A DNA stretch of 54,085 nt from an uncultured Clostridia bacterium (GTDB taxonomy: Bacteria > Bacillota > Clostridia > Oscillospirales > Acutalibacteraceae). Location of the stretch: NCBI GenBank assembly GCA_946627725.1, contig CAMOVW010000001.1:1-54085 (forward strand). The letters run 5' to 3'. Below, one piece after another: positions 3,808 to 54,085 of the stretch (positions are counted from its first letter, which is position 1; every line of letters starts with the position of its first letter). The translations under genes and the position numbers were made by a program. The notes beneath the pieces were generated by a model, which saw only the letters and a program-made list of their open reading frames with translations, had not been told where the DNA came from and did no database searches.

Positions 3808-3836
3808 TTGACAAACGGGGTACACTAATTTATAAT
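3808..3836 (+). promoter_or_regulatory. early promoter P2 (one ACGGGGTACAC copy in the spacer)
   Basis: TTGACA 3808-3813, 17-nt spacer AACGGGGTACACTAATT, TATAAT 3831-3836. Confidence 0.75.
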
Positions 3837-35714: not shown

Positions 35715-37292
35715 TTATCCCGCCTCCTTGCAAAGCTCCGGCAGATTGGCCCGGACAAGCGCCGTCGGGATCGGCGGGCACCCCGCGTTTCCGCAGCGCG
35801 CCACCTGTTCGGATTTCGGATAGGGTTTCCCGTCCGCATCCACGTCGATGATGTAATCCTTCGGGAAGCCCTGGGCATTGAAAAGCTCCCTCGGTGTCAG
35901 CATCCGCAGGCCAATATCGACGATCTGGTAATCCTGCCCGCGCACGGTCACAAGGCCCATTCTGTCCTTTGCTGTCACCGTCGGGGCCGGTTTGTCGCAT
36001 GGCACAGCGTTATCGCCGTTTCCGTAATACTTTACCAGGAAAGCGCATACCTCGCCGAAGTGGTTTGTCTGCGCCGTCATGGTGTTCAGCGGCTTCGTCA
36101 CTTCCTGCCCGACGCTGTAATGGTTGAATTGCGTCACGGCCACGGCGCACACCGCGTTATGGTCGATGGCCGTCACCGTCGGCAGGGGCTTGTTCACACC
36201 AGCGGCCACGTTATCCCCGCCGTAATATTTGCTTATGAAGGTTGATACCAGCCCGTAGCGGTTGCTGGCGTCCACCGTCATAAGCGGATCGTCTACTTCC
36301 TGGCCGCGCACATCGCCGCCCTGCTCGTCGTGGTATTGGATCAGGTTCGGCGCTATTCTATCTTCTCCGTCCACGCTCACGATGAACGGGTGCGGGTTCT
36401 CAATGACAAACTTCTGGATGCCGCGCGCAATCCTGCGCATGGTCGCGTCTGCAAGCGGCCTCACGGCCCGGATGCCGTACTGCTCGTAGATTTCCTCGCT
36501 CGTCGCAAAGATGGACGGGCAGGGCAGAGAAAAGTCCAACACGTCCGCAACCGGCTTCCAGGGTTTCTTCATCCCTGCCGCCACTTCCAGGCTGTCCGGG
36601 TCGCCATGTGTCGCTTTCGGCCAGATAATCGGCTTTCCGTCGCACCTGGCAATCAGAAAAAAGCGCTTTCGGATCGTCGGCGCGCCGTAATCACAGGCCC
36701 GCAGCTCCCGATGTTCGACGTGATAGCCCAGCCCCATAGCCAGCTTCATAGCCTGCTGTGCGTCCGGCTTCAAGAAATCGCACGCCTCATGAAAGGCCGG
36801 GTGATCCAATGCGATGCCGGTTGTCAGCATGGAGACAAAGCCCTTGAAGGTTTCCCCGGCACGCGCCGGGTCTGGCACGGTCTTTCCGTCCTTTCGTTTC
36901 ATCAGCGGCCCCCAGGTCTGTATTTCCTCCACGTTCTCCATCATAATCACGCGGGGCCGCACCGTCATAGCCCAGCGCAGGATCACCCAGGAAAGGCCCC
37001 GGATATGCTTGCTGACGGGTTTTCCTCCCTTCGCCTTGGAAAAGTGCTTGCAATCCGGCGAAAACCATGCCAGCCCAACGGGATGCCCTTCGCAGGCTTC
37101 CACGGGATCGACCATCCAAATATCTTCCGTGTAGTGCTTGCTCGTCGGATGATTGGCCCGGTGCATGGCGATGGCGGCAGGATCGTGATTGATCGCCACG
37201 TCCACGCTCCGGCCTATGGCTATCTCAATTCCGGTGCTCGCGCCTCCGCCTCCAGCAAAATTGTCCACAACGATTTCTCCCGTGCTGTTCAT
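35715..37292 (-). CDS. DNA (cytosine-5) methyltransferase
   Basis: VDNFAGGGG (motif I), SPDCKHFS (IV), MENVEEI (VI), RKRFFLIA (VIII) and CGNAGCPPI (X). A long variable region lies between VIII and IX. Confidence 0.9.
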   Translation of the reverse strand: MNSTGEIVVDNFAGGGGASTGIEIAIGRSVDVAINHDPAAIAMHRANHPTSKHYTEDIWMVDPVEACEGHPVGLAWFSPDCKHFSKAKGGKPVSKHIRGLSWVILRWAMTVRPRVIMMENVEEIQTWGPLMKRKDGKTVPDPARAGETFKGFVSMLTTGIALDHPAFHEACDFLKPDAQQAMKLAMGLGYHVEHRELRACDYGAPTIRKRFFLIARCDGKPIIWPKATHGDPDSLEVAAGMKKPWKPVADVLDFSLPCPSIFATSEEIYEQYGIRAVRPLADATMRRIARGIQKFVIENPHPFIVSVDGEDRIAPNLIQYHDEQGGDVRGQEVDDPLMTVDASNRYGLVSTFISKYYGGDNVAAGVNKPLPTVTAIDHNAVCAVAVTQFNHYSVGQEVTKPLNTMTAQTNHFGEVCAFLVKYYGNGDNAVPCDKPAPTVTAKDRMGLVTVRGQDYQIVDIGLRMLTPRELFNAQGFPKDYIIDVDADGKPYPKSEQVARCGNAGCPPIPTALVRANLPELCKEAG

Positions 37293-47413: not shown

Positions 47414-47430
47414 CTTCGGAATCTCCGAAG
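47414..47430. promoter_or_regulatory. operator O1 (CTTCGGA-ATC-TCCGAAG)
   Basis: Perfect 7+3+7 palindrome just downstream of the cro-side -10. Confidence 0.6.
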
Positions 47431-47475: not shown

Positions 47476-47492
47476 ATTCAGAATTTCCGAAG
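47476..47492. promoter_or_regulatory. operator O2 (ATTCAGA-ATT-TCCGAAG)
   Basis: Imperfect copy of O1, lying between the two -35 boxes. Confidence 0.5.
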
Positions 47493-47499
47493 TTTTTTA

Positions 47500-47557: not shown

Positions 47558-47929
47558 GTGGGAGAAATAAGAAAGACCGTAGGAGAGAATATTAAGAAGG
47601 TCTGCCAACTAAAGGGAATACGACAGGTTGATATATCGGAGCACATGAAGGTGTCACAGGGCACGGTTTCCAATTGGTTCAAAGGCACGAACTCAATAGA
47701 TATTGAAAACCTCGCCGAATTGTGCTCTTTCCTCGGCGTTTCATTGGATCAGATTTTCGGCGTGGCCCCGCTGACGCCAGAAGTTACATTGTCACAGGAA
47801 GAAACCGACCTTTTGAGCATGTTCCGTGCTTTGAACAGCCAGGGGAAGGATATGCTCATGAGCACAGCCCGCGCTTTTGCGGGCAATCCTGATATGCAAA
47901 AAGAAAGTACGAAGTCAAAGATGGCGTGA
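47558..47929 (+). CDS. CI-like XRE-family repressor (no peptidase domain)
   Basis: GTG start behind AAGGAGG. N-terminal HTH QVDISEHMKVSQGTVSNWFKG. Confidence 0.8.
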   Translation: MGEIRKTVGENIKKVCQLKGIRQVDISEHMKVSQGTVSNWFKGTNSIDIENLAELCSFLGVSLDQIFGVAPLTPEVTLSQEETDLLSMFRALNSQGKDMLMSTARAFAGNPDMQKESTKSKMA

Positions 47930-47966
47930 TCTACCCGGAACGATGGTGGAAAGGAAGGGAAATCCC

Positions 47967-48545
47967 ATGAAGAAGATAATCGCCCTGGTGCTCGTGCTGC
48001 TGATGCTGCCCGCCGTCGCCTCCGCAGAAAAAACGGATAGGCGCGGGCTTGTGGAGTTTATCGAGCTGTACGCCTCGCGTTTCGCCGTATTCGCCCATGA
48101 AAACGGGCTGGAATTTGACACAGCCCCGTTGTCGTCGCTTCCGCCGTGGAAAAGCGGCGATCTGCTCATGTTTGAAACGAGCGCCGGGACGGCTGGCGTC
48201 TATCCCGGCGGCTATGATCTGCACGATCTGGTTATGACCTTTTACTCGTTGTCGGACGACGATGCAGACAATGAGCTGTATGCTACAAGCTGCGTAATTG
48301 CCATATCCGCCCTTGAATTTGATGCGCAGTATGAAGTCGGCCCGTCCCTTGCAAGGAAATCCGCCGTCGAAGATGCAGCCGCCATATTTGAAGAAATGGG
48401 AAACGGGCTGGAAGAAGCGCTGACGCAATCAATGGAGGAAGGGGGGCGCGTCCTCATATACTCCGGGAACTATGATTATTATGCCGAATACGCCACCATG
48501 GGCAACCGTGACTTCGTATATCTGATAGCAGAAGAAAGACAATAA
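47967..48545 (+). CDS. secreted protein (lysogeny-module moron)
   Basis: ATG 47967. Signal peptide MKKIIALVLVLLMLPAVASA. Lies between repressor and integrase. Confidence 0.65.
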   Translation: MKKIIALVLVLLMLPAVASAEKTDRRGLVEFIELYASRFAVFAHENGLEFDTAPLSSLPPWKSGDLLMFETSAGTAGVYPGGYDLHDLVMTFYSLSDDDADNELYATSCVIAISALEFDAQYEVGPSLARKSAVEDAAAIFEEMGNGLEEALTQSMEEGGRVLIYSGNYDYYAEYATMGNRDFVYLIAEERQ

Positions 48546-48659
48546 AAAAATGCCCGCCCCGGTTTCCCAGGACGGGCCGCAAAATCAGCCAACACCACTT
48601 GTCCGATTTGCTATTCCATTATAGCGCGGCGAGGGTTATTTGTCAAGGAGCGAAAACGC

Positions 48660-50276
48660 ATGAAAACCGTTAAAACCCAAAGCGGCGCGACGAAAGCGGT
48701 AATCTATGCCCGCTATTCGTCCCACGGCCAGACGGAGCAATCCATAGAGGGCCAGTTGCATGATAACTACGCCTGGGCGAAACAGCAAGGGATCACCGTC
48801 ATAGGCGAATATATAGACCGCGCCCTGACCGGCACAAAGGACGCCCGCCCGGACTTCCAGCGAATGATTGAGGACGCGGCCAAGCGCCAGTTTGAAATGG
48901 TGATCGTCTGGAAGCTGGACAGGTTCGCCCGCAATCGCTACGACAGCGCCATCTACAAGGCCCGTCTGAAAAAGTACGGCGTCAAGGTCGTGTCCGTAAA
49001 AGAGAACATCACCGACAGCCCGGAAGGAATTATCCTGGAAGGGCTGCTGGAGAGCATGGCGGAATACTACTCGGCCAATCTTTCGCAGAACGTCAAGCGC
49101 GGACTGCGCGAGAGCGTGGAAAAGGGGTATTACTGCGGCGGAAGCATCCCATACGGCTACAAGGCGGAAAACCACCGCCTTGTCCCGGACGAGAAAACCG
49201 CGCCCATCATCCGCTATGTGTTTGAGGAGTACGCCAAGGGCACGTCCAAGAAGGAGATCATCGACGAGCTGAACCGGCGCGGCGTGCGCAACGGGAAGGG
49301 AAACCCGCTGACATATACATCCTTCCAGCATGCCCTACGCATGACCACCTATATAGGGGAGTATGTCTATCAGGGAAAGGTCGTGCCCTGCGCCGATCCT
49401 CTGGTGACGCGGGAAGTGTTTGACAAGGTGCAGGCCCGCCTTGACCGGCGCGCTCATGCTCCCGCCGCTGCCAAGGCTCGCGTCCCGTATCTGCTGCAAG
49501 GGAAAGCCTGGTGCGGCCTGTGCGGCGCGCCCATGTTTGGGGAAAGCGGCACGTCGCACACCGGCGCGCTTCACACCTATTACTGCTGCTACAATCGGAA
49601 ACGGAAAAAGGGATGCAAGAAGAAAACCGAGCGCCGCGATAAGCTGGAAACCTTCATCGTCGCCCGGACGATGGATTATATCTTGACGCCATCCCGTATG
49701 AACAGGATAGCAAAGGCCGTCGTGCAGGAGTATTACAAGGAGTTCTCCGGCTCCCGCGTGGAGAATATGGAAAAGGCCATCGCACAGATAGACCGGGAAA
49801 TGGACAAGCTGGTGGACGCCCTGATTGACGCGCCCAAGGCCGCACACAAGAAAATCTATGCCCGTATGGAAGCGCTGGAAGCGCAGAAAGCGGAATTTGA
49901 AACCGACGCGGCCAAGCTGCGCGTCGCAATGGGCCTCCGCCTGACGGAAAAGGAAGTCGTGTCCTGGCTAAAGACCTTCCGCGACGGCGATCCAGACGAT
50001 CCCGATTTCCGCCGCCGCCTGGTGGACATCTTCATCAATGCCGTGTACGTCTACGACGACAGGATCATAGTCTTTTACAACATCCGGGGAGGCAAACAGG
50101 TGTCGAGCAAAGACCTGTACGAAGCCCTGGAAAGCCCGAAAGATAAAGAAAATTCCAAACCCGAAACAGGTTCGGATTTGGAATCATCTGGCGGGGCGGG
50201 TAATTCTAAATCCGAACCCGAATTTGTATTTGTGCATGGCGTCTTTGGGTGCATTTTCCCATGGGGCGAGGGATGA
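48660..50276 (+). CDS. int: large serine recombinase (integrase)
   Basis: AVIYARYSSHGQ catalytic-Ser region, resolvase and recombinase domains, Cys cluster (CGLCG…YYCCYNRKRKKGC) and a coiled coil. Confidence 0.95.
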   Translation: MKTVKTQSGATKAVIYARYSSHGQTEQSIEGQLHDNYAWAKQQGITVIGEYIDRALTGTKDARPDFQRMIEDAAKRQFEMVIVWKLDRFARNRYDSAIYKARLKKYGVKVVSVKENITDSPEGIILEGLLESMAEYYSANLSQNVKRGLRESVEKGYYCGGSIPYGYKAENHRLVPDEKTAPIIRYVFEEYAKGTSKKEIIDELNRRGVRNGKGNPLTYTSFQHALRMTTYIGEYVYQGKVVPCADPLVTREVFDKVQARLDRRAHAPAAAKARVPYLLQGKAWCGLCGAPMFGESGTSHTGALHTYYCCYNRKRKKGCKKKTERRDKLETFIVARTMDYILTPSRMNRIAKAVVQEYYKEFSGSRVENMEKAIAQIDREMDKLVDALIDAPKAAHKKIYARMEALEAQKAEFETDAAKLRVAMGLRLTEKEVVSWLKTFRDGDPDDPDFRRRLVDIFINAVYVYDDRIIVFYNIRGGKQVSSKDLYEALESPKDKENSKPETGSDLESSGGAGNSKSEPEFVFVHGVFGCIFPWGEG

Positions 50277-50306
50277 AATCGCCCAAACCATCAATTTCAT
50301 TTTCAG

Positions 50307-50347
50307 AACCGGCGGCATGGAAAGCCAAACCCAGCCGCCGGTTTTTC
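50307..50347 (+). terminator. intrinsic terminator after int
   Basis: AACCGGCGGC…GCCGCCGGTT 10-bp stem followed by TTTT. Confidence 0.7.
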
Positions 50348-50356
50348 ACGTTTCTA

Positions 50357-51480
50357 ATTATCCGCGCGCGCACGCGCGAGGGGGCCGTTTGTGGCCGTCC
50401 AGGTGAATGAAATTCATAAAAAAAATAAAAAAATTAGTGAAATGGTGGGCTCCCAGCGCCCGCGAGAGAGGAAAATGACGCGCGCAGTACCTACACGCGG
50501 AAGCGGGCGCGCGCGTACACGCGCGGGCGTGCGAGCGCGCGGCGCGACGCGAGCGCAGGGGCGCGGGGGCGCGTGGGGGCACGCGGCGCGTGACGCAGGG
50601 GCGCAGGGGCGCGCGGATGCGTAGCGCGCTGGCGTTGCGCGTTGCGCGGTAAAAGCAACCCCGTAGGGGTTGCATCCTGGGGCGTGTAGCGCCCGCGTGA
50701 TGGCGCGGTGCGTGGCGCGGGGGCCGCGTGTCCAGGGGCGCGGCGCAGCGGGGCGCGGATCGCGGGCGGGGCCATGGGCGGCCATGGGCGCGGCGCGGGC
50801 CGTCGGGGCAATTCGGCAGCAGGCCGCCGGGGATCGCCGCCGGGGGCCGGGGCCGTCGGGGACGTGTCCAGGATCGCCGCCGGATGGATCGCCCGCCGGG
50901 ACGGTTGACAGCTCCGGCGACGTGTCCAGGCAGCAGGCAGCTCCTCGCGCGCGCCCGCATGGGTAGCCGGGGCGACGTGTCCAGGATCGCCGCCGGGGAT
51001 CGCGGCAGGCAGCAGGGGCCGCCCGCGTCCAGGGGGGCAGGCGTCCAGGGGCGCGGCAGGGGCCGCCGGGGATCGCCGCCCGTAAAGGGGCAGCATGTTT
51101 TTATTTCATTCGGCCCTGATTTTTTCCGCCGGGGATCGCGGGCAACGTGTCCAGGGGGCAGCAGGCCGCCGGGGCCGGGGACGTGTCCAGGGGCAGCAGG
51201 CCGCCGGATGGATCGCGGCAGGCAGCAGGGGCCGCCCGCGTCCAGGGGGCCGGATTATTTCAGCAAGGGCAGCAGGCCGCCGGGGCCGGGGACGTGTCCA
51301 GGGGGGCAGCAGGCCGCCGGATGGTTCGCGGCAGGCAGCAGGGGCCGCCCGCGTCCAGGGGGCCGGATTATTTCAGCGGGGCAGCGGGCCGCCGGGGCCG
51401 TGTCCATTTCGACGGGCGGCAGGGGCGCGGCGCGCATGGGCGGCGCGGGCAGGATCGCGCTCACGCATATACGCGGGAAC
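50357..51480 (+). repeat. extremely GC-rich, G-strand-biased degenerate repeat array (non-coding)
   Basis: (CG)n-like runs at 50357-50640. At least 11 same-strand copies of CG(T/C)GTCCAGG, with recurring GCAGCAGGCCGCCGG and GGATCGC units. All six frames are open and Arg/Gly/Pro-rich. Confidence 0.8.
51157..51377 (+). repeat. two near-identical tandem units of about 110 nt inside the array
   Basis: 51157-51264 versus 51268-51377 differ only by a GG insertion and an A/T change. Each splits into two sub-units of about 55 nt. Confidence 0.85.
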
Positions 51481-51544
51481 ATAAAACGCGCGTGCGCCCG
51501 TTGCCCCTCAAAAAAATTTTTTTATTCCCCGTAGGGGAATACCT

Positions 51545-51585
51545 GGCCCGAAAAACAGGGGTGTTTCCGCACGGGCCGTTTTTTT
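51545..51585 (+). terminator. intrinsic terminator just upstream of P3
   Basis: GGCCCG…CGGGCC stem with inner AAACA/TGTTT pairing, followed by a T7 run. Confidence 0.65.
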
Positions 51586-51678
51586 GTGCTATGCTTTTCA
51601 CGTCGCAAGGCAAGCGGCCCGCCGGGGACGGCGGCAAGCCCCCGAAAAAATTTCCCGAAAAAAATTTTTGAAAAGGGC

Positions 51679-51731
51679 TTGACAAACGGGGTACACCGTG
51701 ATAATATGGGCACCGTGGACGGGGTACACCG
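51679..51731 (+). promoter_or_regulatory. early promoter P3 with two direct ACGGGGTACACCG repeats
   Basis: TTGACA 51679-51684, 17-nt spacer, TAATAT 51702-51707. The 13-mer occurs at 51686-51698 and 51719-51731. A-tracts upstream. Near-duplicate of P1. Confidence 0.75.
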
Positions 51732-51764
51732 AACACAAACGACAAACGACAGGAGGCCAACACC

Positions 51765-52019
51765 ATGAAAAGCTACACCGAAATCAAGCAAGCGCTCCGC
51801 CGGGAAACAAGCGATTCACTCCGCTATTTCACGAAATCATTTCTTGCGACGTACACCGCCGCCCTGGAAGAAAACAAGCGCAACGCGGAAAAGGGGATCG
51901 ACGACAGTTATTGCGATAATGGTATCTGGACGCGGCACGCATGGGACGCCGTGCGCAAGACGGATTTTTACCAGAAAAGCGGCTCCGCCTATTGCGTATT
52001 CCTGCAAATTGTAGCTTGA
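51765..52019 (+). CDS. hypothetical early protein
   Basis: ATG behind GGAGGCCAACACC, 84 aa. Confidence 0.6.
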   Translation: MKSYTEIKQALRRETSDSLRYFTKSFLATYTAALEENKRNAEKGIDDSYCDNGIWTRHAWDAVRKTDFYQKSGSAYCVFLQIVA

Positions 52020-52119
52020 CAAGCCGAAACGCGGCGCGGGCCGCGTCCGCCGGGGATCGCCTCCCGGCGCTGATGATGGCAGGCGAACACAACACCGAAT
52101 TTTTAAGGAGGCCAACACC

Positions 52120-53016
52120 ATGAAGGATCTGTATTCTGAAATCACCAACGGTATCATTGAACAGCTGGAGCAGGGCGTTATCCCGTGGAAAAAGCCCTGG
52201 ACGGGCGTCAATTCCGGCGCTATCAGTCACGCGACGGGCCGCGCGTATAGCCTGCTGAATCAGATGTTGCTTGCCCGCCCCGGTGAATATATCACCTTCA
52301 ATCAGTGCAAGCAGGAGGGCGGCAAGGTCAAGAAGGGCGCGAAGTCAAAAATTGTCGTGTTCTGGAAGGTGCTGCCCCGCGAAAAGAAGGACGCCGACGG
52401 AAACATTATCACCAACGCCGACGGCAAGCCGATCATTGAAGGGCTGCCCGTGCTCCGTTACTTCCAGGTGTTTCATATCGACGATTGCGAAGGGATCGCC
52501 CCGAAATGGGAAAACAAGCTGCCCGCCGTCGCAAGCCCCGACGAACGCGCCGAAAATGTTTTGATGGATTATGTACGCCGGGAAAACATTCGGCTTGAAA
52601 ACGTGATAGGCGACAAGGCGTATTATTCCCCCTCCTGTGACCTTATCCGGCTGCCGATCATGGAGCAATTCGACAGCACCGCCGAATATTACGGCACCGC
52701 GTACCATGAAGCAACCCATAGCACCGGCCACGCAACGCGGCTAAACCGTTTCACCGGGGACGCTGCCGCCGCCGCTTTCGGCTCCGAATCGTACAGCAAA
52801 GAGGAGCTTGTCGCGGAAATCGGCTCCGCCTGCTGCCTGCATGAATTGGGCCTTGAAACGCCGTCCAGCTTCAAAAACTCCGCCGCCTATATTCAGTCCT
52901 GGCTCCGCGTTTTGAAGGACGACAAGCGAATGATTATCAGCGCCGCCGCCCGCGCCGAAAAGGCCGTCAAGCTGATTTTCAACATCACCGACAGCAAGCA
53001 GGCGGACGGGGAATAA
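52120..53016 (+). CDS. ardC: ArdC-like antirestriction protein (ssDNA-binding N-domain + zincin-like protease domain)
   Basis: GVIPWKKPW N-terminal motif and HEATHSTGH (HExxH) in the C-terminal half. Confidence 0.85.
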   Translation: MKDLYSEITNGIIEQLEQGVIPWKKPWTGVNSGAISHATGRAYSLLNQMLLARPGEYITFNQCKQEGGKVKKGAKSKIVVFWKVLPREKKDADGNIITNADGKPIIEGLPVLRYFQVFHIDDCEGIAPKWENKLPAVASPDERAENVLMDYVRRENIRLENVIGDKAYYSPSCDLIRLPIMEQFDSTAEYYGTAYHEATHSTGHATRLNRFTGDAAAAAFGSESYSKEELVAEIGSACCLHELGLETPSSFKNSAAYIQSWLRVLKDDKRMIISAAARAEKAVKLIFNITDSKQADGE

Positions 53017-53065
53017 TCCCCGCCCCCTGCAACGCCCCGAAATCATTTTGAAGGAGGCCAACACC

Positions 53066-53296
53066 ATGAAAAAGCTGCTTGCAATCGTCGCCGCCCTGGC
53101 CCTTGTCGCCGCTGCTTCATTCGCCGCCGGACGGGCCGCCGGTATCCGGCACGCGATAGAGGACGCCGAAATATACACGGTTGAATGTTACGATCCCGAC
53201 AACCCCGACGAAAACGCCCGCCCCGACGGCACCGATCAAACAATCTATATCGAGCTGGACGGGGAAATATACGAGCACGGCATGTATCAGGGATGA
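53066..53296 (+). CDS. small membrane-anchored/secreted protein
   Basis: ORF trimmed to ATG 53066. Begins MKKLLAIVAALALVAAASFAAG. Confidence 0.6.
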   Translation: MKKLLAIVAALALVAAASFAAGRAAGIRHAIEDAEIYTVECYDPDNPDENARPDGTDQTIYIELDGEIYEHGMYQG

Positions 53297-53413
53297 ACGC
53301 CCCGAAATCATTCCGCCCGACGATGGCCCGCCGGTTACGGGCCGAAACGATCCCGCCGGGATCGTCGCGGAAAACCGCAACGCATCGAAATCATTTTGAA
53401 GGAGGCCAACACC
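53294..53413 (+). repeat. long-form intergenic element, copy C (hairpins 53325-53343 and 53347-53365)
   Basis: Contains the same 55-mer as the window ends (53327-53381). Confidence 0.8.
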
Positions 53414-54001
53414 ATGAAAACCGTTTTCACCTTTACCGCCGACAGCATCACCGTCAAGGGCAAGACTTTCCCCGCTGAATACTCCGTTACCCCGTCCGGC
53501 TCCGTGTTCGTGTTCGTCCAGGAGGACGGCAAGCAGGAAAAAACCCGTATTCGCTTCAACCCAGATCATGCCGAATACGCCGCCGCCCTGGCCGCCGCCC
53601 GCAACGAGCAGCCCGCCCCCGCTGCCGATGAACGCCCCGAAATCATTCCCGCCGCCGATCCGGCCCCCGCTGCCGTGGAAGAAACGCCCGCCGCCCCCGC
53701 TGCCGATCCCGCCCCCGTCGCCGACGGAAAAGCGACGCGCGGCCCCGTCCCGGAAAAGACTTTCATCGGCGAAAGCATCACCGGCAACGGCTGGAAAATC
53801 CTTTTTGACGGCGAAACGAGCCGCACACGGATTATCTTTGAGAGCAAGCCCACGGACGCCGCCCGCGCTGCCCTGGACAAGGCCGGTTTCTTCTTCTCCG
53901 CCGCTATGAATAGCTGGAATAAGAAATTGACCTTCAAGGCATACCGCGCCGCGCAAGCCCTGGCCGGTGAATTGTCCGCCCTGTACCCCGCCGCCGCTTG
54001 A
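53414..54001 (+). CDS. hypothetical early protein (beta-rich N-domain, Pro/Ala linker, GFxxS…W C-domain)
   Basis: ORF trimmed to ATG 53414. Linker ADERPEIIPAADP. The C-terminus DKAGFFFSAAMNSWNKKL resembles plasmid/phage DUF3560-type domains. Confidence 0.65.
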   Translation: MKTVFTFTADSITVKGKTFPAEYSVTPSGSVFVFVQEDGKQEKTRIRFNPDHAEYAAALAAARNEQPAPAADERPEIIPAADPAPAAVEETPAAPAADPAPVADGKATRGPVPEKTFIGESITGNGWKILFDGETSRTRIIFESKPTDAARAALDKAGFFFSAAMNSWNKKLTFKAYRAAQALAGELSALYPAAA

Positions 54002-54002
54002 C

Positions 54003-54085
54003 GGCGCGGGAACATTCCGCCCGACGATGGCCCGCCGGTTACGGGCCGAAACGATCCCGCCGGGATCGTCGCGGAAAACCGCAAC
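54003..54085 (+). repeat. long-form intergenic element, copy A (continues at nt 1-87 if the ends are joined)
   Basis: Hairpins at 54029-54047 and 54051-54069. Followed at nt 56-87 by the conserved leader of gene 88..987. Confidence 0.75.

Follow-up and report, generated by a model that had tools for sequence, protein, structure and literature searches.

A GC-rich, strand-biased repeat region between an integrase gene and an ArdC operon

The stretch of DNA analyzed here (54,085 nucleotides [nt], hereafter the window) carries at positions 50357-51480 a GC-rich and strongly strand-biased repeat region, located between the gene for a large serine integrase and an operon encoding an ArdC-like anti-restriction protein. 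Because its first 55 nt recur at its end (1-55 and 54031-54085, a direct repeat), the window is circularly closed and constitutes a complete phage genome of ~54 kb, in which genes for a lambda-type large terminase, a portal protein, a C5 DNA methylase and cI/cro-like helix-turn-helix (HTH) proteins can be recognized. To the left of the region, a cI-like gene (47558-47929, + strand) is followed by a lipoprotein-like open reading frame (ORF) and by the integrase gene, int (48660-50276, + strand), with Resolvase, Recombinase and Zn_ribbon_recom domains. To its right, a near-consensus sigma-70 promoter (TTGACA-17-TAATAT, 51679-51707, + strand; 10/12 matches plus TG) is predicted to drive an operon composed of an 84-aa ORF, a type II hammerhead ribozyme outside the block (52022-52088, + strand; Rfam RF02276, Hammerhead_II) and the ArdC-like gene, identified by a domain match (52120-53016, + strand). 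The surroundings of this promoter (51584-51707, + strand) include an extended -10-like element (TGTGCTATGCT), present in all phage types, and operator-like GGGGTACACCG repeats beside the promoter.

The original prediction, made from the sequence of the window, described the region as a degenerate repeat array bracketed by + strand terminators. Both terminators are present, and they differ in strength. The left one, an intrinsic terminator after int (50305-50348, + strand; stem 50305-50345, 10-12 bp, U5), is strong (-25.3 kcal/mol, z = -4.97), whereas the stem of the right one, a terminator-like hairpin of the form GGCCCG...CGGGCC followed by U7 (51544-51585, + strand; stem 51544-51578), is weaker (-14.4 kcal/mol, z = +0.4).

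The compositional claims of that prediction were borne out. The GC content of the region is 74.2%, compared to 58.3% for the window, with 496 G and 338 C residues, and in 200-nt windows across the region GC reaches 0.83 and GC skew ranges from +0.10 to +0.28. Runs of four or more G number 40 on the + strand (22.4 +/- 2.9 expected from dinucleotide shuffles), compared to a single run of four or more C. The motif CG[TC]GTCCAGG, which had been reported to recur in one orientation, has ten copies on the + strand where they had been located and none on the - strand, the copy at 51040 being a shorter GCGTCCAGG variant. Successive motif copies are spaced by 136, 58, 55, 48, 16, 106, 36, 55, 56 and 57 nt, so that the predicted spacing of 55-57 nt is recovered as intervals of 55-58 nt. 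In comparison with 1000 dinucleotide shuffles, GTCCAGG (12 observed, mean 0.11), GGATCGC (10 observed, mean 0.27) and GGCAGCAGG (9 observed, mean 0.07) are markedly overrepresented, all on the + strand. Tandem Repeats Finder (TRF) identified a 113-nt unit with a 38-nt sub-period at 51156-51400 (2.2 copies, 95% matches), where two almost identical units of about 110 nt had been noted, as well as GC/GCGCAGGG-type repeats at 50503-50616. The excess of motifs over shuffles and the TRF repeats both support a strand-biased degenerate repeat array.

This array is not an artifact of one assembly, because an identical contig and independent variants carry it. The European Nucleotide Archive (ENA) contig L272, which may stem from the same phage population, is 100% identical to the window over 50837-54085 (3249 nt), tandem repeat included, and the independent variants L204 and L273 present the same array with other copy numbers.

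Alignment with related phages reveals that the region is bipartite, comprising a conserved non-coding module (50362-50492) and a hypervariable repeat block (approximately 50493-51480). The module, on the + strand, shows invariant blocks in 15 aligned phage types, with at least ~30 distinct copies. It is composed of an alternating CG box (50362-50381), a small variable hairpin, RTGAATGAAATYCAT (50403-50417), A-tracts, GGGCTCNCAGCGCC-CGC (50447-50463) and CAGTACCT (50485-50492), at fixed spacing. The A-tracts are the first of two A/T islands that had been taken to interrupt the array; both islands are found in the sequence, and the first belongs instead to this separate, sequence-conserved module.

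The hypervariable block starts with a low-complexity tract of alternating-CG and GCGCAGGG-type repeats (50493-50643, + strand; periods 2, 8, 24 and 40) that aligns with L004 and L204 and whose alternating purine-pyrimidine runs can potentially form Z-DNA. It continues with a hairpin module, GGTAAAA-GCAACCCC-GTA-GGGGTTGC-ATCCTGGGG (50644-50684, + strand), found once or twice per element and always in one orientation, and with an older, degenerate part of the array (50685-51094, + strand) bearing the oriented motifs (A)CGTGTCCAGG, GGATCGCC and GGCAGCAGG. The second A/T island, T-rich on the + strand (51095-51127), contains ATTTCATTC, the inverse of the GAATGAAAT of the conserved module. This island is conserved in L204 and L273, and L023, L027 and L121 have T-rich islands too. 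It precedes the young tandem repeat (51156-51400, + strand), in which the 113-nt unit resolves into three sub-units of ~38 nt and copy number varies between strains. A conserved 3' module (51441-51541, + strand) then leads to the right-hand terminator through ...CACGCATATACGCGGGAACATAAAACGCGCGTGCGCCCGTT, an A7T7 run and a TTCCCC-GTA-GGGGAA hairpin (51525-51539). The 3' module is kept in the window phage, L204 and L004, and more distant types have equivalent hairpins with changed stems.

Conservation and turnover of the region among related phages

To retrieve relatives of the region, the first A/T island served as the source of a DNA pattern that was searched for in IMG/VR, metagenome-assembled genomes (MAGs) and metagenomes, yielding at least ~30 distinct elements. 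The source MAGs were assigned to Clostridia, Oscillospiraceae and Eubacteriales from goat, roe deer and rabbit, and the metagenomes include human gut samples. A block occupies the same place in at least 11 related elements for which more than 700 nt are available past the module, and in at least five shorter, partial contigs. The integrases of L004 and L023 are 59-68% identical to that of the window phage, and those of L056, L121, L144, L159 and L220 are much more distant. Despite unrelated repeat sequences, all seven of these elements share a common architecture, in which a GC-rich stretch of 0.6-1.1 kb contains one or two hairpin modules and lineage-specific tandem repeats and ends in an A/T run, a CCCC-GTA-GGGG-type hairpin, a terminator and a TGnTATGMT element/promoter. 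These results identify the region as a genuine, family-wide non-coding element of temperate phages of gut Clostridia, with fast-changing repeats.

The hairpin module within the block is conserved, with a consensus across lineages of GCGATAAAG-GCAACCCC-GTA-GGGGTTGC-TTCCTGGGG. A covariance model of this module (R1) returned 30 full-length hits at 18 loci, in one orientation and all inside such blocks. In the R1 stem, 98.7% of cells are paired and compensatory changes affect 4/8 pairs, with zero G-U pairs, and the loops are mostly GNA triloops. This strict Watson-Crick covariation, without G-U pairs and with mostly GNA triloops, makes the module look like a DNA palindrome more than an RNA helix.

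Composition and polarity are also largely maintained. Among relatives, the GC content of the block ranges from 0.67 to 0.79, exceeding that of phage and host by 10-20 points; since host flanks reach only 54-68% GC, the block is GC-richer than phages and hosts alike. In 12/15 block-bearing elements sampled, GC skew lies between +0.12 and +0.20 with the same polarity, and it is close to zero in the other three; G exceeds C in 8/8 complete blocks measured, which represent seven phage types.

The repeats themselves turn over rapidly. Their periods (30-113 nt) are lineage-specific, with 82-100% identity between young tandem copies. Phages whose ArdC proteins are identical differ in how far the second A/T island lies from the 3' anchor (363, 250, 245 or 216 nt), and L204, 97% identical to the window in the flanks, differs by indels of 1, 2, 7 and 17 nt, as well as of 36 and 57 nt. 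The block is retained in the lysogens L273, L134, L051 and L058. It is nonetheless dispensable, because L097 has the module, the terminator and the promoter without the block. Numerous contigs begin within the block or terminate just ahead of it. The block and the preceding module hence break short-read assemblies, which leaves viral contigs fragmented and hides the linkage between integrase and anti-restriction genes; conversely, the strain-level length polymorphism provides a natural variable-number tandem repeat (VNTR) marker for tracking these phages.

The conserved module also occurs apart from the block. Defined by invariant TGAATGAAATNCATAAAAAA, CCGC and CAGTACCT at fixed spacing over ~130 nt, it stands alone, with no GC-rich block, in L097 (L097:20-300), and as a solo module between the genes for transfer-messenger RNA (tmRNA) and pmbA in at least ten phage-free host contigs (e.g. 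L073:5050-5330). Seven short-read contigs end at, or within ~30 nt of, the ...CAGCGCC core of the module. The window contains no second copy of the module or of its core, and the idea that block and operon arrived together as a separate insertion was rejected on this account.

Candidate functions of the block

The place, architecture, GC content, usual polarity and palindrome of the block survive among relatives and its repeat sequences do not, which points to a function exerted through bulk properties. Furthermore, its position between two + strand terminators and immediately upstream of a near-consensus, operator-controlled promoter suggests a polar barrier or insulator. Our preferred, tentative interpretation is that the block is a composition-driven polar barrier acting in cis upstream of a repressed ArdC operon. 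Under this interpretation, the block would operate through its physical properties in bulk and not through a specific sequence, with contributions from high duplex stability, alternating-CG tracts, perfect palindromes and a non-template strand that is G-rich with respect to rightward transcription. The barrier would stall or end transcription entering from the integrase/attP side and would absorb the negative supercoiling made by strong downstream promoters. The accessory operon would as a result be kept functionally separate from the int/attP region or from the host flank. If functional, the block would represent a cis element defined by composition or structure and conserved across a family of phages of Clostridia from gut and rumen, a type of element that has not been described for phages.

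Several observations weigh against such a barrier. Two intrinsic terminators already stand at the site. In window-type lysogens, the host flank at the left prophage junction (attL) has no gene reading into the block, and the tRNA-Ser gene and its neighbor read away from it; protection from host read-in therefore cannot be the general reason for its presence. Only the window group and L220 are rich in G-clusters, and L058, L121 and L134 show practically no skew. The element without a block, L097, again indicates that it can be dispensed with. In addition, the short oriented motifs GTGTCCAGG and GGATCG are common to phages with integrases only 59-68% identical, and such sharing fits sequence-specific recognition better than a bulk property. 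Finally, length polymorphism and lineage-specific units would be equally expected of a neutral minisatellite.

A neutral or selfish minisatellite, arising at a dispensable intergenic locus by slippage and unequal recombination and devoid of function, is a serious if doubtful candidate. Its GC-richness and skew would then be a legacy of the seed sequences or a product of biased gene conversion. The four length alleles among phages with identical ArdC, the high identity of young copies within lineage-specific units of 30-113 nt, the absence of the block from L097 and its almost wholesale deletion in the L073-type solo module, and the many contigs that break in or at the block are all in line with this explanation. 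Bacterial VNTR or minisatellite loci likewise show strain-level copy-number polymorphism, young near-identical units and assembly breakage. The block differs from them in its conserved flanking architecture, hairpin module, extreme composition and polarity across diverged lineages. Moreover, a neutral repeat does not readily account for the retention of 0.6-1.1 kb (~2% of a size-limited genome) in about ten diverged lineages, or for a GC content 10-20 points above phage and host in opposition to the usual mutation pressure, which is AT-biased. The conserved flanking architecture, the compensatory changes in the internal hairpin module and the same strand polarity in 12/15 elements also speak against it.

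It is somewhat less probable, and on balance unlikely, that the oriented motifs are sites for a phage-type-specific or host protein that assembles a nucleoprotein complex with a role in regulation, replication or segregation, as implied by the original suggestion of an iteron- or centromere-like array. The oriented direct repeats that prompted this suggestion are real: GTCCAGG, GGATCGC and GGCAGCAGG occur 9-12 times in one orientation where fewer than 0.3 are expected, they remain recognizable in the degenerate stretch despite diverged flanks, and GTGTCCAGG and GGATCG recur in L004, L023 and L027. Unit sizes are also reminiscent of known arrays, such as that of F sopC, which consists of 43-bp units. 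More generally, F sopC, the P1 incA/oriR iterons and P4 crr resemble the block in having oriented direct repeats of tens of bp per unit that span several hundred bp, are intergenic within a mobile element and contain a short conserved core per unit.

The expected partners, on the other hand, were not found. We scanned 34 ORFs against Pfam and/or PHROGs, including all predicted + strand genes at 51765-3553 (across the origin of the circular map) and 47558-50276 but not every ORF of the phage, and detected no Rep, ParA/ParB, ParM/R or TubZ/R domain. The array is present without a par/tub partner among the ORFs scanned. Replication genes reside instead in an SPP1-like module of DnaD-like, G39P-like and single-stranded DNA-binding (SSB) proteins at 40.8-42.4 kb, on the opposite strand and ~4-12 kb from the block. 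No DnaA box with up to one mismatch was found in the block, although two short A/T islands do exist. Iterons are recognized as helically phased direct repeats of ~17-22 bp, present at least three times; the units of the block measure 36-113 nt, and its motifs are irregularly spaced (16-136 nt) and out of helical phase. Furthermore, known iteron and centromere arrays are AT-rich or neutral, in contrast with a block of 75% GC, and the units of the block are unrelated in sequence between sister lineages and vary in copy number among near-identical phages. In distant lineages the units are altogether different, and the genes that come first downstream also change from lineage to lineage, so that no co-varying binder is evident. 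The motifs of the block do not recur in other intergenic regions of the phage.

We consider it unlikely, although worth stating, that the block exemplifies a new class of phage cis-element, a cassette of non-B-DNA serving as a polar insulator of both topology and transcription or as an initiator based on R-loops. Its parts would be the alternating-CG tracts, capable of forming Z-DNA, the conserved perfect palindromes, capable of extruding cruciforms, and the R-loop-prone G-rich strand. Selection on physical behavior would, according to this proposal, explain why place, composition, polarity and hairpin are kept while the repeats turn over.

A G-rich, + strand non-coding RNA (ncRNA) of ~1 kb ending at 51544-51585, for example a sponge for an RNA-binding protein or a small RNA, is rather improbable. 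It would account for a second terminator right after the block, where the integrase terminator already precedes it, and for the fact that all motifs face one way; in L056 and L097, moreover, the module is followed within ~70-100 nt by a hairpin and a T-run, resembling a small-RNA gene. A consensus scan, however, revealed no sigma-70-type promoter upstream of or inside the block on either strand, the + strand RNA of the block is no more stably folded than shuffled sequences (z = +0.54), the hairpin module lacks G-U pairs and the sequence is not conserved between lineages. Searches of Rfam 15 assigned no family to the block, either at the gathering threshold or with E values up to 5 (best scores of 16-18 bits, compared to thresholds of 50-81), and no match to the block in ten related loci; only Hammerhead_II, outside the region, passed its gathering score.

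An R-loop-type, RNA-primed replication origin or recombination initiator is a still weaker candidate, and we deem it very improbable. Rightward transcription, for which the G-rich strand is the non-template, would generate a stable RNA-DNA hybrid, leaving the displaced strand free to fold into the hairpin modules and to recruit the primosome. The sequence criteria for R-loop formation are a zone of G-cluster initiation followed by an elongation zone with at least 40% G on the non-template strand. These features are present on the + strand of the window phage (nine initiation motifs, compared to none on the - strand, and 46% G in a 600-nt sample) and of its close relatives, with 7-9 motifs on the + strand, none on the - strand and 46% G across the window, L204 and L004. 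Other lineages have 0-3 initiation motifs or motifs on both strands, three of them with skew near zero, and G-clusters are lacking in L023, L027, L056 and L159. The suggestion that the region is prone to R-loops is therefore only partly supported, by the sequences of the window phage and its close relatives, and its G-quadruplex (G4) counterpart is not, as a search for G3+N1-7 x4 motifs returned only one canonical G4 motif, at 50764-50788. The conserved, DNA-type palindromes with GNA triloops are compatible with an origin. In cluster A mycobacteriophages, an RNA-based prophage origin is known at the position of the integration/parABS cassette, with an expressed ncRNA needed for replication in phages that are extrachromosomal (PMC7157519). 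The likeness lies in a non-coding element beside such a cassette in a temperate phage.

Unlike those mycobacteriophages, the window phage integrates, has a protein-based replication module and shows no evident promoter or RNA in the block. SPP1-like phages usually keep their origin in the replication module, which in this phage lies elsewhere, no promoter was found that could transcribe the block, and the block is dispensable in L097. The G-rich R-loop regions of immunoglobulin class-switch recombination and of G-rich transcription blocking also offer a parallel, being kb-scale degenerate tandem repeats with G-clusters on one strand, the non-template strand for the direction of flanking transcription. 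Those regions are eukaryotic or were demonstrated with model polymerases, and the block further differs in that its G-clusters are not kept in distant relatives and in its single canonical G4 motif.

We give next to no credence to the region encoding an Arg/Gly/Pro/Ala-rich protein, or a small basic protein from an RTG codon at 50403. ORFs of 77-268 aa do exist in the region, including some of 200-268 aa, the base before TGAATG at the start of the (V/M)NEIHKK... ORF is always a purine (A or G), and its first ~20 codons show some synonymous-looking changes. This small ORF was nevertheless rejected, because in-frame stops at codon 9 or 13 interrupt it in 7/39 distinct copies listed and the invariant CAGTACCT is read in different frames across lineages; it also lacks a Shine-Dalgarno sequence at the proper distance. 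For the region as a whole, GC is flat across codon positions (0.74-0.80, compared to 0.57/0.40/0.73 in int), indel lengths in close relatives do not keep to multiples of three and the 113- and 38-nt periods fit no reading frame. Homologs thus reveal no conserved ORF, and the non-coding nature of the region stands. The accompanying claim that all six frames are open does not, as each contains 2-9 stop codons.

As originally stated, the block could not be matched to a known phage element. No homolog was found among GenBank phages in near and distant searches, an IMG/VR search with a 35-nt repeat unit gave no match, and literature searches retrieved no description of such a block. It is not a CRISPR array, as its units follow one another head to tail without unique spacers in between, and no cas genes were seen.

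Some further candidates were also discarded. The derivation of repeat units from a tRNA 3' half (GGTGTCCAGGGT, similar to tRNA-Lys) was rejected because matches of 10-12 nt between GC-rich blocks and unrelated tRNAs arise by chance on both strands. A cluster of Chi-like sites, considered in view of the strand imbalance of AGCGG (20:1) and GCGCGTG (19:3), was not supported: these counts derive from the repeats and so are not independent, and, judging by the gene map, the motifs face the wrong way for a cos phage relative to the free end left by a lambda-type terminase. GATC is enriched 5-fold, but always as GGATCGC and without being avoided elsewhere, which disqualified a methylation cluster. 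Lastly, a Rho-loading region for leftward transcripts was dismissed, since the C-rich minus-strand RNA contains 30% G and is slightly more structured than shuffles (z = -1.9), and no leftward promoter was found.

Integration site and neighboring features

The original prediction also raised the possibility that the region harbors the attP of the adjacent integrase, which occupied and empty host sites now render practically untenable. The attP of the large serine integrase can be assigned to 50169-50218, inside the 3' end of int and ~140 nt upstream of the region. Its near-perfect inverted arms, GGTTCGGATTTGGAAT and ATTCTAAATCCGAACC (50169-50184 and 50203-50218), are separated by an 18-nt spacer containing the core ATCTGGCGG (50186-50194), which is common to attB, the 3' end of tRNA-Ser(GGA). 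It is a classical 50-bp serine-integrase attP within the integrase ORF, such sites measuring 40-50 bp (10.1101/2025.05.02.651858). The block resembles an attP in lying next to the integrase gene, but the true site is a 50-bp inverted-arm site within int.

Window-type contigs were retrieved through an identical encoded ArdC protein. In the attL of L273 (seen at L273:1080-1100), host DNA extends to ...gatgctaa and is followed by sequence identical to the window from 50186 onward, and the empty attB sites of L283, L284 and L280 share only ATCTGGCGG with the phage. The attB of L280 lies at L280:2292-2382, and ARAGORN identified a tRNA-Ser(gga) in this contig. Since attL, empty attB and window place the crossover in ATCTGGCGG, the region contains no attP. 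In L273 the switch from host to phage sequence occurs at 50186. The block lies wholly inside the prophage, in its left arm and 0.3-1.3 kb from attL, with the region at about +170 to +1290 nt from the left prophage end. Within 50357-51480, no dyad-symmetric 40-50-bp site associated with lysogen junctions was found. Three MAG contigs of other lineages similarly show a tRNA (Ala-cgc, Ala-ggc or Lys-ctt), ~9 nt, and directly the last ~25 integrase codons, followed by terminator, module and block.

What had favored an attP in the region, besides its adjoining int, was that L073-type and L220-type contigs appear at first sight to diverge at the module core, where the seven short-read contigs mentioned above also end. 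The contigs end there because a conserved module is followed by variable sequence. L073 has no integrase, and its solo module is proximal to tmRNA, in the order smpB, tmRNA, ~390 nt, solo module and pmbA/tldD. An attP at the module core itself (...GGGCTCNCAGCGCC) was accordingly ruled out by the true junctions inside int and by the integrase-less L073. The attP and attB of this integrase family, with tRNA targets and an attP within the int ORF, matter for the delimitation of prophages and for integrase mining.

Integration at tRNA-Ser(GGA) removes the last ~27 codons of int, including a family-conserved tail, KSEP.(F/Y)VF..G(V/I)FGC. The attR was reconstructed from the window and attB, no attR contig being observed, and the predicted prophage integrase ends in ...ESSGGELGI*. 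Integration could hence bring about a change in integrase activity or stability. An antisense hairpin with a T-run inside int (50185->50151) is predicted to provide the tRNA with a new terminator after integration. In L056, which encodes a different large serine recombinase, the integrase stop codon is closely followed by a tRNA-like sequence of nearly full length (L056:5113-5173, - strand; 35 bits for the Rfam tRNA model), which is presumably the attP of that phage, with a tRNA copy.

The hammerhead ribozyme (54-58 bits for RF02276), which separates the ArdC-like gene from the 84-aa ORF at the start of the operon, is kept in the close relatives L204 (L204:5729-5794) and L273 (L273:2782-2848). 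L004 is without it and has ArdC directly after the promoter. The + strand accessory operon contains the promoter/operator sequence TTGACAAACGGGGTACACCGTG at three places (51657-51700, 1456-1499 and 3808-3825), which suggests that one repressor may control three accessory-operon promoters.

The cI/cro intergenic region contains a perfect 17-bp palindrome, CTTCGGAATCTCCGAAG, at 47414-47430 and a half-matching second copy at ~47479-47494. This pair probably represents the immunity operators, and it is unrelated to the motifs of the GC-rich block. The heptamer ATGAAAT/ATTTCAT is present four times within 830 nt (50273, 50294, 50407 and 51103), where ~0.2 are expected from its genome-wide frequency. 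These sites form two inverted pairs, located around the int stop codon and terminator, with one site in the module and one in the second A/T island, and the heptamer may be a protein-binding motif.

Across the whole window, CTAG (~192 expected by composition) and GAATTC (8 expected) are both completely absent, which suggests strong counter-selection by host restriction systems. GATC is not avoided genome-wide (283 observed, 192 expected), and a 525-aa C5 DNA methylase is encoded at 35715-37292.

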